Part shown: piece by piece, positions 1 through 64,000 of the stretch
How the letters are laid out: each line of letters begins with the position of its first letter
Numbering within the stretch: position 1 is the stretch's first letter
From: Eledone cirrhosa
Lineage: Eukaryota
DNA length: 64,000 nucleotides
Assembly (NCBI GenBank): GCA_964016885.1
Contig: OZ024746.1
Coordinates: 26,784,001 to 26,848,000 of the forward strand
Direction: 5' to 3'
Program-made: the position numbers and the translations under genes
The notes under the pieces: model-generated
What the model was told of the DNA's origin: nothing
Databases searched by the model: none
Seen by the model: only the letters and a program-made list of their open reading frames with translations

Positions 1-480
1 TTGCTGCTAAATGAGAGTTTACAATATTCTTTGTTTATTTTTGTAGTAATTGGGAAATTCCTACACTATAACCATATCTATAGTCTAATGCTCTCCATAA
101 CTGACCATCTCTTCATCAATTTAGCTATTATTTATCTTGAAATTCATTATGAAATCTGTCTATAAATTTATTTACACAGTGGCGTATGATTTCGCGAAGA
201 TTTAGTTCCTGCTTCTGTGTAGAAATCCCCAATATACCTAATTTAAATATTTATCACTGATCCAGAATGTAATTATTCTCTTAAAATATAATAAAATATT
301 TCTGGTTTTAATTACTGATGAAGTTTAAATATTTCCTTGTTTAATTAATAGAATCTTTAAACCTTATTTTCTCCTCCAGATTGGCAATATACATTGGTTT
401 TATACATCTCAACATGGATGACATTGATATATATTCTTTTATTTTCAGATATTCCAGTTATTTTCAAAAGTCCAAAACAA
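1..480 (+). pseudogene. Inverted, internally deleted pseudo-copy of the cytokine-like gene (unit 1)
   Basis: 1-428 is the reverse complement of intron 1 and the start of exon 2 (~5712-6124). The exon-2 remnant 380-428 (WQYTLVLYISTWMTLI) is fused to the intron-4 3' end and an exon-5 remnant 449-480 (IFQLFSKVQN), which then stops. Confidence 0.8.
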
Positions 481-1689
481 GTAATACCCTCAGCGCTCCC
501 AATCCTATTTCCAGAGAGACCTGCCTACACGCAAGTTGTAAATAATATATAACAAATAAAATAGTTAATTTTTATATAATAAAATAATGTAATATATTCT
601 ATGTATAAATAAATATTATATATTTTATATTTTACTATATTGATATATAATATTGTTATACTTGGGGAGGGTCATATTTGTGTAATATTGCCAGAATTAA
701 TAATAGAACACACTTACTGTTGGGTTGGTTTTTCGCTTTTCACTTCTGTGTCTTTTATATCGGTAATCTAATTTATTCGGTCCTCAATGTTGCCACTCAC
801 TGCCCAACGGTCAAAAATAATACAGATACAATATAGACACAAACACATATATATAGTTTATCAAAGTTCTTTCGTTGTACATCTGCAACATCGTCAGTGG
901 TGCTATTGTTTCCTCCCGTTACATTGTACTTTCTACGCCATCTTCATTTAGTCTGTTTATATATTTATTTATTTGTTTATTTTATTTTGACTTCTTTGCG
1001 CATGCGTTTGCGTGTGTGTATAGTGTTTTGTTTGATGTGTGTTCGTGATTGGGTGACTGTGTATTGGTTAATGTATTCTATCTTTACTAGTGTGTGTTTA
1101 TATGTGTTTGTTGTTATTGTTGTCTATGTTACCGTCGTGTTGTCTGGCATGTTCGTATAGTACTGACCCGTTTTTTCGTCCTTTTAGTTCCCCCAGTGTT
1201 GGTCTATCCTTTCACCTGTGCTACAAGCTGTCTCGCCTATGTATGTTGCTGTCATGTTTCTGCAAGTACCCTCTGTACATCTTATGCTATAGACTACGTT
1301 TCTAGTTTTACAATTTATCCGTATAAATTTTATATTTTTTATTTTATATTTTATATTTTATATTTTATATTTTATATTTTATATACTATTATATCATTTC
1401 TATCGTCCCCTTAGGCTGAAGCACCCCAGGACCTTCTCAACGCTCCCGGGGTGGGGGCGTTAGCGTCCACTTTAAGAACCTTTGGTTTATGCGGTGGCAT
1501 TTTTCCTCTGGTCAGTTCCCCATAAAATAACCGTTTAGGAAGCCCTTCATCTTCCATCCTGCCCAAATAACCAGCCCAATGCATCTAGCTCATTATAATC
1601 CTTATCTCAATACTGGTGCTACCCGCTTTTCCGGTACAGCAGTATCAGATGTGTAAGAGGACCACTTGATGTTCAGTAAGCGTGGGATA

Positions 1690-2612
1690 CAAGATAAATC
1701 ACAATGAGTGGATTGATGATAATGATGTTACAATCACCAAGCCTAGTGAAGAGAAAAATAACTTGTATTGAAGTGTCTTGTTGCAGATGGTCCAGTGATG
1801 ATCACTTTTGAGAAGACCTTCAAAGAAACAAAGTCAAAACTGCCATATAAATTTCTAAGAATGAAGAATAAATTATGGTCTGAAGTTTCAGCCGAGATTC
1901 AGAAAGATTATAACTGCAGAGAATTACAGCACAATAAGTTAAGCTTTTGGCTCAGCGCACTAAAACATGGCACCATTGAAGTAAAGAGATGGGAAAGCCC
2001 TCATCAAAGAGATGGACACAATGAAACTCTAGATTTTGATGGAATACCTGTTGAGCTGATCCGCTTTCGAGGTGACAATGTTGCTATGGCCATTCATAGA
2101 CTAGTCTCATCAGTTTGGCATTGTGAGCCTATCCCGCAAGGCTGGGTAGATGCAATTTTGCTCTTGATTTACAATGGCAAGAGCTCCAAGTTTAAATGCG
2201 GTGGTTATCGTAGTATAAGTCTGCTCGATTCGGAAGGGAATGTTGTATCCAAGGTCTTGCTGAATCGTCTAAATGGATCTGTCCTGGGGCCATCCCTGAT
2301 AGCCAGGAACTAGGCGGAGTACTGTGGACAGGATTTTTGCAGTCCATCAGCTTCTGGAGTGCGTTGAGCAGCAAGTGTCACTGTACAAAGTATTTGTGAA
2401 CTTTATCAAAACCTTTGATACTGTTAATCGTAGTACATTGTGAATCATATTGGGGGAATTTGGATGACGTCACGAATTTGTTGGAATATGCAAAAAATTC
2501 CATCAAAATATGAAAACAAAAGTGAACTTCAACGGGACACTTTCAGAGCCAATTTCAATGGCAAACGGTGTCTAGCAAGGTGGCATTCCTGCACCCACTC
2601 TGTTTACCATCA
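1690..2612 (+). mobile_element. Decayed RTE-clade LINE reverse-transcriptase fragment (unit 1)
   Basis: DGIPVEL, IPQGWVDA, CGGYRSISLL, then KTFDTVNR and NGV*QGGIPAPTLF with stops and frameshifts. Confidence 0.85.
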
Positions 2613-61369: not shown

Positions 61370-61411
61370 GGGTATTTCCAGATATATAAGTTCCACTGGT
61401 AAGTATATAAA
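61370..61411 (+). promoter_or_regulatory. Putative core promoter of copy 6
   Basis: GGGTATTTCC at 61370-61379 and TATATAAA at 61404-61411, homologous to the copy-1 block. Confidence 0.45.
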
Positions 61412-61505
61412 GTCACATTATAATTCTATTGACTATCTTACAAGCAAATTTAGTGACTTCTCATTTAAAATTATATTTCCTCTAACAAATTTATAAAAGA
61501 TCAAC

Positions 61506-64000
61506 ATGTGTAAGTAGAAAATTCTATGTTATAATCACTGTAATAATATGAGGAAATGCAACGGGAGTCTTTTAAGAATATTCATTTACTTTACAGGTTC
61601 TTATGATTTAAAAAAAAAAAATTGAGATGGAGGGATTGTGTTTCTGATGTGGTTTGTCTCGCATCTGGTTGGAGTTGGAAAGTTTTTTCCTTATATTTTT
61701 TACCAGTGTGGGACATTTTATATATATATATAAATACAAATAAATAATCGAGGATCGAAATCTCAGCCCACGAAATCACGAAACACAATCTTCGAAATGT
61801 GTGGCAGAGGGCTCAATAGTTTGGGTAACCCAGAGCTATAACTATCGATAAAATACCAACACATAGAGACAATGCTTAAAATCATTCACACAGCCGAAAA
61901 AACGACCAGGAAAATTCGGGTCAAACACAGTTCCAGCCACCGATGTAGTATTTCACAGTAGTCGGTTTCCTTCAGAAGCAGAATGTTTGTTAATAGTAAT
62001 ATTAATAATAAAGAGCGGGAACGAAGTTTCAATATAACAACGTTATGTTTATTCGGATATGACGCACGTATCGCGATCGGTTAGCTCAAGATACGATCGG
62101 TATGATGACGACCGACTCGGGAATCGATAGTGTATCGAACTTGTGAATTCTCAAGTGAATAAACATATTGATGTTATATTGATACTTCGTTCCTGTTCCT
62201 TATTATTATTATATATATTCATATATATATATATATATATATATATATATCTGTGTGTGTGTGTGTATAAATGTATATGTGTGTCTTTCAGATCTAGAGT
62301 AAGTAGCAGATATTGCAATAGCCTGGGGTTAAAAGGGACCCAACACTTTAATAAGCTACCAAGAAACTTGAGAGATCTATATGTTGTGGACGTGGATATT
62401 TTCAAAAAACATCTTGCCACTCTACTACCTAAGATCCTAGATGAACCCTCAGTACGTAACCTAAGAGCAGCAACAACGAACTTCCTCTACATCAATGGCC
62501 AACCGACGCAGGCTGGGTATAGGAAGTGAAGCAACAAGTGCAGTGCCCCAGCATGGTCTGAGTCGGATGGCTGAAACTGGAAAAAGTGTAAAAGAGTAAA
62601 AGTGAATATAAATATATTCTGGTATTAATTACTGATAAAGTTTAAATATTTCCTCGTTTAATTTATAATATTGTAAAACATTTTTGATTTCTCCTCCAGA
62701 TTGGCAATATACATTGGTTTTATGTCTCTCAACATGGATGACATTGATCCATGGATTACCTATACAATCTACAACAACAACAACTGAATTATCTGATATA
62801 TCTGATATAAAAACTGAAATAGATACGGCATTGACGTTAACAAAAAGAACCACAGCAGCCGTAAACAATACTTTGATTAATTATGTAAGTTAAGAATTCA
62901 TTACTTTTCCCAATCTTTTCTTACTACCTCTCTCTCTTACTCTCTCTCTTTCTCTCTTTATTTTTCTATCTTTATCAATTGCTCTCTCTCTCTCTCTCTC
63001 TCTCTCTCTCTCTCTCTCTCTCTCTCTCTCTCTCTCTCTCTCTCTCTCGCTCTCACTCTCTCACTCTCTCTCTCTCTCTTATGTAAGTTAAGAATTCTTT
63101 TTCTATCAATTTCTCTCTCACTCTATCCTAATTTATATTACTGCCTATCTCTCTCTCTCTCTATATATATATATATTTTTAAGAATATTTATTTGTTTCT
63201 TTTACCGGTTTCACAGTTCTTATGCTTTTCAAAAGTAGAATTGAGATGGAGGGTTGTTGTTTTTCTCGCATATATATGTGTGTGTGTGTGTGTGTGTGTG
63301 TGTGTGTGTGTGTGTGTGTGTGTGTGTGTGTGTGTGTGTGTGTGTGTGTGTGTGTGTGTGTTTGTGTGTTTGTGTGTGTGCGTGTGTAATAATCGTATCG
63401 TAATATAATAAAACACAAAAGTTTAGAATAACTGAATGCTATCAACCTCCATATGTTTTAATAGTTAACTTCACACTCAGATGATTATTTATAATAGATA
63501 TATTAGTATTGTAGCAAGAGTTCCCTCCCTTGTTATGACATTCACGTCGGGGTCACCACTTTAGGAGGGCAGAACCCTTTTTTGTCATTTCCGTCCGGAG
63601 ACCCTATAAAAGGGACAGGTCAGAGCGATCTCACTCTCTCGCCTCCTGAATCCCAAAGTGGTAACAACACCTGCGACCTTGTCATGAGATGACTCCTCTC
63701 TCATTTTCCTTCGCCACTCAAGAAGAATGCCACCGGCAGCCTAAGAACCTAAGAAGATGTTAACACCTCCAAGAGAAGATCTCTCCTTTTCTCCACACAC
63801 TTCAGCCTAGGAGTTGTGACCAACGGGTAACCATTTATTTATATTAATCCATTTGACTTCTGTGAAGTAAAACCTTGTCACAACACACACCGGCATTTAT
63901 TGTCATTTCTGATAATGCATATATGTACACCGATACTAATCTCCTAAAGTATAATCTAAATTAAAATAATGTGTTCCATATATCATGTGTCAGACTCTCC
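61506..64000 (+). CDS. IL-6/G-CSF-like gene copy 6, opposite strand, partial (exons 1-2 in window)
   Basis: atcaacATGT|gtaagt at 61506-61509. Exon 2 is 62700-62884 (cctccag|AT TGG...AAT TAT|gtaagt) and encodes the same peptide as copy 1. The last ~55 nt of the window match the end of intron 2, so exon 3 should start about 35 nt beyond the window. Confidence 0.8.
62288..62603 (+). mobile_element. 3' end of a CR1/L2-group LINE in intron 1 of copy 6
   Basis: NSLGLKG..FNKLPRNLRDL..VDVDIFKKHL...DEP...RAATTN C-terminus, followed by a gtgccccagcatgg...gctgaaact tail and taaaag repeats. Confidence 0.75.
63531..63885 (+). mobile_element. Probable solo LTR in intron 2 of copy 6
   Basis: TGTTATGACA...TGTCACAACA termini (TG..CA, 9/10 inverted match), 355 bp, internal TATAAAA, absent from other copies. 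No target-site duplication seen. Confidence 0.55.

Follow-up and report, generated by a model that had tools for sequence, protein, structure and literature searches.

A tandem array of some thirty near-identical genes for a predicted long-chain helical cytokine in the octopod Eledone cirrhosa

What does a gene encode that stands about thirty times in a row in an octopod genome, is the array real, and how did it arise? The question is raised by a stretch of 64,000 nucleotides of Eledone cirrhosa DNA (assembly GCA_964016885.1, genome of 3.0 Gb; contig OZ024746.1, hereafter C6, C6:26,784,001-26,848,000), called the window below, in which an unannotated five-exon gene recurs in tandem units that are 92-99% identical in a self-comparison. 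The window has a G+C content of about 33%, as AT-rich animal DNA does, and the protein relatives of its gene also indicate an octopod origin. It is the right end of an array of about 400 kb (C6:26.45-26.85 Mb). We analysed 464 kb around it, unbroken except for one 200-base gap; the flanks were covered to about 45 kb on the left and about 40 kb on the right.

Between C6:26.454 and 26.849 Mb there are 31 copies of exon 4. Exons 2-5 are open and flanked by canonical splice sites in 30 of the 31 copies, one of which has an in-frame 3-base deletion, and the remaining copy is truncated. These 30 copies hold 27 distinct coding sequences and encode 19 distinct proteins that differ at few residues. A candidate exon 1 is present in every open copy, and a TATA block was found 30 times in the array. 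The genes are accompanied by 27 inverted pseudo-copies, all with the same deletion junction. Most units are 11.7-12.7 kb apart, the spacing reaching about 16.5-17 kb in those that carry a Penelope-like element.

The gene is best described on the intact copy c27, which we use as reference (21051-23433 of the window, minus strand; coding part from stop to start codon, 21051-23303). It has five exons with intron phases 1,0,0,0 and, with its predicted first exon, gives a precursor of 240 amino acids. The putative exon 1 ends at 23300, the ATG at 23303 being followed by a single base (phase 1), and exons 2-5 lie at 22534-22350, 22006-21872, 21705-21475 and 21218-21051, all on the minus strand. Exon 1 was assigned from a consensus donor after the ATG and from first exons, likewise of phase 1, in the corresponding position of paralogues on contig C4 and at C6:12.4 Mb. 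A 12-base TATA block 77-125 bases upstream is common to all three loci; in c27 it starts at 23433. The promoter core (23428-23500, minus strand) combines this block with a block about 25 bases further upstream, likewise conserved in the three paralogous loci, which we take to be kappaB-like; this and the other promoter motif names are assumed from remembered consensus sequences and serve as sequence labels only. Three motifs restricted to the array, STAT-like at -541, CRE-like at -52 and a kappaB-like 10-mer at -196 (shuffle p=0.011), were set aside as evidence, because they were chosen post hoc and are not conserved in the paralogues; we keep them as leads only. The pentamer ATTTA occurs six times in the 600 bases 3' of the stop codon (window 20450-21050, minus strand), a density of 10 per kb compared with 4.7 per kb window-wide, which is a weak hint of AU-rich instability elements of the cytokine-mRNA type.

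The array gene is transcribed and its exons 2-5 are spliced. A contig of 775 bases from run X4, a second sample, lacks 343, 166 and 256 bases, and these gaps coincide exactly with introns 2-4 as predicted, all of the GT-AG type (contig depth 5.2). Its coding part equals copy c25 and is 1-14 bases away from the other copies among the 29 compared, so that the source of the transcript is the array rather than one of the distant paralogues.

The first-pass annotation, which had described the copies, named read depth as a check on whether the units are haplotypes or a misassembly of one or two loci. In runs X1-X3, which are one sample and possibly the assembled one, depth over the gene is 120-160; at the pseudo-copy junction it is about equal (105-153), and at intron 1 it is about twice as high, as it should be where gene and pseudo-copy both contribute. 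For six stretches compared through shared 31-mers, depth in run X1 follows the number of assembled units (126 for 29 units, 129 for 27, 127 for 26, 116 for 27, 97 for 20 and 32 for 7; r=0.98), that is 4.3-4.9 per assembled copy. Depth thus comes in fractions of 7, 20 and 26-29 units, which two or four alleles cannot yield; it is therefore not one or two loci that were sequenced, and the artefact reading fails. The 27 distinct coding sequences and the irregular placement of closest relatives along the array also speak against duplicated contigs, haplotypes or any other assembly artefact, which we regard as extremely improbable. What such an artefact has in its favour is the single sample behind runs X1-X3, the gap of 200 bases located 4 kb to the right of the last copy, and the fact that the depth per copy is not tied to a proven single-copy locus, so that two joined haplotypes of about 15 copies each are conceivable; two junctions of low depth (2.9-6.2) had no counterpart in the 654 kb that were searched and are not proven single-copy references.

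As for the nature of the product, the label 'cytokine-like' given at the outset is upheld by the predicted fold. AlphaFold (AF2) models were available for two homologues, P0002 and P0006, each 58% identical to the array protein (mean predicted local distance difference test score 81 and 83). Both contain four long helices, at 27-63, 101-140, 157-180 and 205-231, with long A-B and C-D loops, and have no strands, so that they lack the cystine-knot beta fold of IL-17. Searched against 48,161 solved chains, both models match IL-11 best (Z 14.8 and 15.1; root-mean-square deviation, rmsd, 2.7 and 2.6 over 153 residues), followed by LIF (Z 14.7 and 15.0) and IL-6 (14.3 and 14.8), with CLCF1 also among the next matches. 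In both searches the best 13 rows are long-chain class I cytokines; interferons come next with 9-10.6, and the highest-ranked non-cytokine reaches 7.5 and 7.8. Foldseek likewise ranks prolactin, LIF and G-CSF on top, and the language-model features of the Argonauta homologue lie near clusters of IL-12A, IL-6, G-CSF, prolactin, LIF and CNTF (0.91-0.92). We therefore hold it highly probable, as far as models of homologues can tell, that the array protein belongs to the fold class of long-chain class I helical cytokines.

The comparison with the vertebrate IL-6/gp130 family (IL-11, LIF, IL-6, CLCF1, CNTF, IL-27p28 and OSM) extends beyond the predicted long-chain four-helix bundle, for which the matches to this family reach Z 13-15 and rmsd 2.6-3.9 over 137-165 residues. 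The array precursor shares a hydrophobic N-terminus with these proteins (hydropathy peak of 1.9 at residues 7-18, a low-confidence helix in the model). IL-6 intron phases are 1,0,0,0, the same as those of the array gene. In the array, the IL-6-like layout is seen for introns 2-4 in the spliced contig and predicted for intron 1 in 30 of 30 copies and in the paralogues. The signal region and helix A come from exon 2, the A-B loop from exon 3, most of helix B together with helix C from exon 4, and the C-D loop and helix D from exon 5. The mature chain of about 25 kDa has three N-glycosylation sequons and six cysteines, of which Cys 64 and Cys 75 lie at the junction of helix A and the A-B loop, where one disulphide pair of IL-6 also sits; Cys 137, 147, 153 and 166 are in the B-C region, in or beside an insert. 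According to the accessible part of PMC13081863, IL-6 genes, too, are split into five exons, the signal region holding one intron and the domain three; their phases are 'conserved', and a precursor length of 150-280 amino acids is used there as a criterion, a range into which the 240 residues of the array protein fall. In contrast, the array protein has no Pfam match, shows 7-18% identity to cytokines in the structural alignments and carries, between helices B and C, an insert rich in cysteine that includes a short helix. Copy number differs too: vertebrate IL-6 has one to four copies (three in lamprey and four in skate according to PMC13081863), against about 30 in the array.

Could the four-helix likeness be convergent, the gene encoding a helical protein peculiar to coleoids and without kinship to class I cytokines? 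The low structural-alignment identity, the lack of any profile match to cytokine families and the absence of named relatives outside cephalopods among the proteins looked up would fit such an origin. It nevertheless seems quite unlikely to us, since long-chain class I cytokines take the top 13 places twice, well above unrelated bundles, and since language-model features and exon layout agree with the cytokine class.

Sequence searches give the family little reach. A search with exon 4 returned six proteins among 15 candidates, all 'uncharacterised' or 'hypothetical' and from Argonauta and Octopus. A profile of the family matched 24 among 1.84 billion representatives, and the ten matches looked up comprise six octopod proteins, one from a cuttlefish and three from unnamed assemblies. 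Three long saposin-like proteins among the 24 were dropped as chance matches (P0025 was examined; P0027 and P0030 have similar short matches). A search from the most divergent family member found only itself. No match was obtained with the models of the IL6, IL11 and LIF_OSM type (PF00489, PF07400, PF01291 and kin), and the gene is therefore not filed as an IL-6 orthologue; judged by sequence, it fails the test for the IL-6 family. Searches of the literature by accession and by topic, judged from the beginnings of abstracts, with supplementary tables excluded and subscription journals mostly outside their scope, did not find the family either. The array gene family is thus undescribed, whereas its structural class and tandem cytokine clusters are already known.

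Our full interpretation, which we consider probable on balance, is that the product of the gene is a secreted helical cytokine of the long-chain class I kind, structurally in the class of IL-6, IL-11 and LIF, acting as a JAK/STAT pathway ligand. In this scheme, a TATA promoter with a kappaB-like element would give inducible transcription; the product would be secreted through its N-terminal hydrophobic segment, probably as a glycosylated protein of about 25 kDa, would bind a class I receptor of the gp130/Domeless type, and its JAK/STAT output might serve defence, the repair of wounds or blood-cell production. Molluscs appear to have the receiving side. The accessible part of a 2026 survey of 18 animal groups lists molluscs as having JAK and STAT along with an IL6R-like receptor, with no IL-6-type ligand; the invertebrate exceptions with a ligand are insect Unpaired and a lectin, and other ligand types are suggested (PMC13203501). 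JAK-STAT terms are enriched in the white body of Octopus maya (PMC6522055), octopus STAT, SOCS and IL-17 transcripts or JAK-STAT enrichment are described with no such ligand in the available portions of two studies (PMC6522055, PMC4199593), and in what is accessible of a further source only receptors are mentioned for molluscs (PMC12162339); PMC9868252 and PMC12773714 yielded no pertinent passage. Searches of the Eledone genome for receptor and pathway genes with PF09240, PF06328 and PF02864 had no match; the silence of STAT_bind, a domain to be expected in any octopus, suggests that they are blind to exon-split genes, so that absence is not implied. A degenerate WSxWS pattern has 42 matches in the genome, with no receptor-like exon in the 30 of them that were fetched.

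Several observations weigh against this interpretation. Cytokine Pfam families match none of the 26 members of the alignment at E<=5, the family profile finds nothing below E 0.38 among PDB sequences, and the best sequence link is that of one distant member to IL-6 at E=0.88. Foldseek has no match at E<=0.001, and the structural search tool itself cautions that unrelated helical bundles may score as high as Z 13-14. The folds were modelled for the homologues rather than for the window's own spliced protein. Recognition in the ESM Atlas is low (1699), and a filtered second feature search reached only 0.84-0.86. In contrast to IL-6, the B-C region holds four of the six cysteines of the mature chain, and the signal peptide is assigned on hydropathy only. 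Run X4 behaves as spliced RNA, its run type not being on record, and its contig begins one base 5' of exon 2 with a base that matches intron 1 and not the predicted exon 1. Finally, thirty copies are odd for a low-dose signal.

This last point leads to the possibility that a cytokine fold was co-opted as a bulk exocrine product, in the mucus of skin or suckers, in saliva, or in egg-case or seminal secretion, with an array that serves to raise output and not to signal internally. Selection for amount would suit many copies with near-identical products (19 proteins from 30 copies) and a subfamily that is multi-copy in three octopod lineages, and the extra cysteines and three sequons suit a stable secreted protein. 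Nevertheless, the sole transcript was seen at low depth in X4, depth being a poor measure of expression, and the conserved kappaB-like block by the TATA box suggests inducible control. Large arrays are also known for signalling cytokines, namely the vertebrate interferon clusters and a large tandem IL-17 gene cluster that the 2015 Octopus bimaculoides genome paper reportedly describes. We therefore find an exocrine role unlikely. The array resembles that IL-17 cluster in being a large tandem cytokine cluster of an octopus; IL-17, in contrast, is a cystine-knot beta protein, whereas the array protein is all-helical and its copies are about 99% identical.

If the gene is indeed a cytokine of the IL-6 structural class, are there related ligands in other protostomes? 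Insect Unpaired is a secreted ligand of Domeless of the same structural class. Its cluster is among the feature neighbours at 0.84, which we treat as a lead only; the Atlas cluster measures 410 amino acids against 240 in the array protein, and the Unpaired model PF15972 has no match in the family. Closer in features (0.91-0.92) are a mostly molluscan ESM Atlas cluster of 229 amino acids and 114 members, 11% of which carry PF00489 (IL6), and a mostly arthropod one of 230 amino acids. IL-6-like molluscan predictions are therefore already in databases; none of these molluscan or arthropod proteins is among the 24 matches that the family profile retrieved. An IL-12p35-like protein has reportedly been found in oyster; a search by that name brought up no such paper among the matches listed. 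The oyster protein CgIFNLP is a class II-like molluscan helical cytokine as far as the accessible text goes (PMC9756803), whereas the octopod models rank class I long-chain cytokines (Z 14-15) above interferons (9-10.6).

The family extends beyond the array in E. cirrhosa. A head-to-head inverted pair of older paralogues lies at C6:12.42-12.43 Mb (region C6:12,417,000-12,446,500), and single older paralogues are found at C6:12.445 Mb and at C6:10.51 Mb (C6:10,508,000-10,513,000). A second tandem array, at C4:128,162,000-128,226,000, has four near-identical paralogues with exons 3-5 open, spaced by about 20 kb and about 50% identical in protein sequence to the window gene. Family fragments occur on C2, on C19 and at C6:26.852 Mb. 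Inverted pairs recur within this family, and at C19:9,923,650-9,924,880 five tandem repeats of about 269 bp each contain the first half of a family exon 4. Gene models of Octopus vulgaris have consecutive accessions on one contig, and two of them fuse repeats of exons 3-4, an arrangement that points to a tandem cluster in this species as well. The family tree, of 36 rows, has separate, well-supported clades for the array (100/99), for three proteins of Argonauta (100/97), for ten rows of Octopus (100/100) and for the four copies on C4 (100/100); long branches make its deep nodes unsure. Separate Octopus, Argonauta and array clades bear out a family that is multi-copy in a lineage-specific manner across octopods; concerted evolution of one older cluster would give clades of the same appearance.

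It is tempting to go further and to see in the array family the molluscan ligand of the IL6R/Domeless-JAK-STAT pathway, a true IL-6-type homologue whose five-exon layout would date back to the bilaterian ancestor and of which one subfamily would have been amplified repeatedly in octopods as inducible cytokine arrays, with 30 copies in the present case, much as type I interferons were in vertebrates. We offer this as a good possibility that we would not yet call probable. The locus is an expressed candidate with the fold and gene layout expected of the missing molluscan IL-6-type ligand. If the assignment is true, IL-6-type cytokines and their exon layout would be pushed back to the protostome-deuterostome split, work on cephalopod immunity and regeneration would gain its first class I cytokine, and the very young 30-copy array would offer a system for studies of cytokine dosage.

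How did the array come about? At its left end, an intact plus copy (c02) faces an intact minus copy (c03) tail-to-tail across debris of long interspersed nuclear elements (LINEs), and the LINE-remnant spacer found in the window is the same as the one inside this pair. The pseudo-copy is nearest to c02 (92%, against 86-90% for the minus copies) and continues into the same spacer as c02 (96% over 2.7 kb); the plus partner therefore died once, before the unit multiplied. The starting state was thus a tail-to-tail gene pair flanking LINE debris, in which the plus partner was gutted by internal deletions before amplification. A unit of about 12 kb made of pseudo-copy, spacer and gene then multiplied about 28-fold and was shuffled. 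Unequal crossing-over together with gene conversion is the simplest route, as closest relatives are both adjacent (c10/c11, c16/c17) and distant (c09/c26, c22/c29), which is expected from these processes. Amplification continued after one insertion of a Penelope-like element, now in five scattered units.

Units differ from one another on average by 0.9-1.3% in LINE remnants and by 0.9% each in the pseudo-copy intron and the coding sequence. The near-identity of the units even in dead LINE sequence and the very recent expansion, both proposed earlier, are thus borne out, the latter also by the five Penelope-like frames of 2.1 kb, which show no substitutions and three small indel differences, with longest open stretches of 536-745 codons; amplification therefore ran almost to the present. 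The idea of birth and death stands in part: lineage-specific duplications are seen, and inside the array much birth but little death, with one of 31 copies lost and 27 pseudo-copies that go back to one death.

Have the copies been kept by selection? The ratio of non-synonymous to synonymous polymorphism (pN/pS) is 0.33 (14 synonymous and 23 non-synonymous alleles, p=0.024), or 0.31 without the end copies, and no frameshift occurs in 30 copies, against 16 non-triplet gap patterns in introns 3-4 and the 3' untranslated region. Both speak against a purely neutral amplification, in which the gene would be a cytokine and its thirty copies a by-product of an unstable region rich in inverted repeats and transposons, most of them redundant and bound to decay; so does the fact that other octopods have amplified this subfamily again. 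In favour of neutrality, junk was amplified equally (27 pseudo-copies and five Penelope-bearing units), non-synonymous diversity (0.63%) is only slightly below the 0.86-1.3% of LINE remnants and pseudo-copy intron, and the absence of nonsense changes among about 39 has a probability of about 0.15 under neutrality. One copy is truncated (c28), another (c15) has lost a conserved cysteine, and a different paralogue is tandem on C4 as well (four copies). A neutral origin seems plausible to us, if rather doubtful; it concerns the array only and is compatible with the identity of the gene as a cytokine. Purifying selection on the copies is weak and constraint likely; the dosage selection suggested as possible in the first-pass annotation is not demonstrated by the pN/pS value or by the missing stops. 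In copy c15 (C6:26,642,313), the family-conserved cysteine of the B-C insert is changed to tyrosine, likely an early loss of function.

Within the window itself, the six copies and five inverted pseudo-copies expected at the least were all found, the array being far larger. Four copies are intact, one is truncated and one is inverted, as had been described, and the inverted one is intact as well. Successive exon-4 copies are 16.8, 11.7, 10.0, 11.8 and 9.3 kb apart, near the unit length of 8.5-16 kb given before. Besides c27, the intact minus-strand copies are c26 (4241-6745; TATA block at 6745, start codon at 6614, exons 2-5 at 5760-5576, 5233-5099, 4932-4702 and 4408-4241), c29 (42775-45189; stop to start codon 42775-45059) and c30 (54581-57871; coding 54581-57741), in which intron 1 is lengthened to 1722 bases. 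The truncated copy c28 (32737-33391, minus strand) retains exons 4-5 only, a deletion of about 1.9 kb having taken out the proximal promoter and exons 1-3. The inverted copy c31 (61399-64000, plus strand) has its TATA block at 61399, its ATG at 61506 and exon 2 at 62700-62884; exons 3-5 correspond to window-equivalent positions 64037-65029, just beyond the window end. Between the last minus copy and c31 lie an unrelated retroelement-like fragment (60517-60885, minus strand) and a long (GAA)n tract (59583-59776). The assembly gap of 200 bases is at C6:26,853,268, with an exon-2 fragment adjacent at 26,851,866, and the array may continue into unassembled sequence beyond it.

The inverted pseudo-copies of the window, all on the plus strand, are at 1-483, 16201-16910, 28559-29099, 38201-38741 and 50102-50642; the first is made of part of intron 1, the first 49 bases of exon 2, the deletion, the end of intron 4 and the start of exon 5. 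The spacer of LINE remnants between pseudo-copy and gene occupies 18205-20082 in the unit of c27 (RVT_1 at E=2e-4, below the cut-off) and 1762-3282, 30257-31777, 39935-41812 and 52101-53621 in the others. The Penelope-like retroelement (12071-16146, plus strand) has an open frame of 712 codons with a YKDD motif and no Pfam match, and the Penelope assignment is our interpretation of its motifs and terminal repeats. The element bears an inverted repeat at its 5' end and sits at one and the same site, next to an (AT)n tract, in the five units that carry it. A second Penelope-type frame (916 and 1066 codons) is found in one unit within a 3.4-kb inverted duplication of 98% identity (C6:26,678,000-26,685,200), and by eye a 3'-end remnant of that element seems to be present in ordinary units (window 17529-17765, minus strand).

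A cysteine-rich piece that had been taken for an orphan gene fragment turned out to belong to a transposon: it is an alternative frame that overlaps the C-terminus of open reading frame 2 (ORF2) of a Tx1/L1-like LINE, whose 3' end lies at 26343-26617 (plus strand) and again at 9874-10066, 36130-36324 and 48122-48316. Relatives of this LINE end are dispersed over eight contigs at 78-80% identity (13 of 40 scored matches, from 1614 candidates). The piece was also considered as a Shavenoid-like host exon and rejected, PF23328 (E=0.0016) being below the cut-off and the other frame being the ORF2 end. The unit further contains a minisatellite of 26 bp with 13.7-20.7 repeats (24559-24975, also 7872-8423, 34319-34680 and 46315-46676), and a long one of about 36 bp with several open frames lies between copies c01 and c02 (C6:26,470,700-26,473,000). 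On the left flank, two frames at C6:26,417,400-26,422,000 resemble, as judged by eye, a nuclease derived from a Harbinger/PIF transposase. The first host gene of the right flank (C6:26,879,500-26,887,400) shows by eye acidic low-complexity exons; we take it to be similar to an SNF2 helicase of the ATRX/ARIP4 type, a possible synteny anchor.

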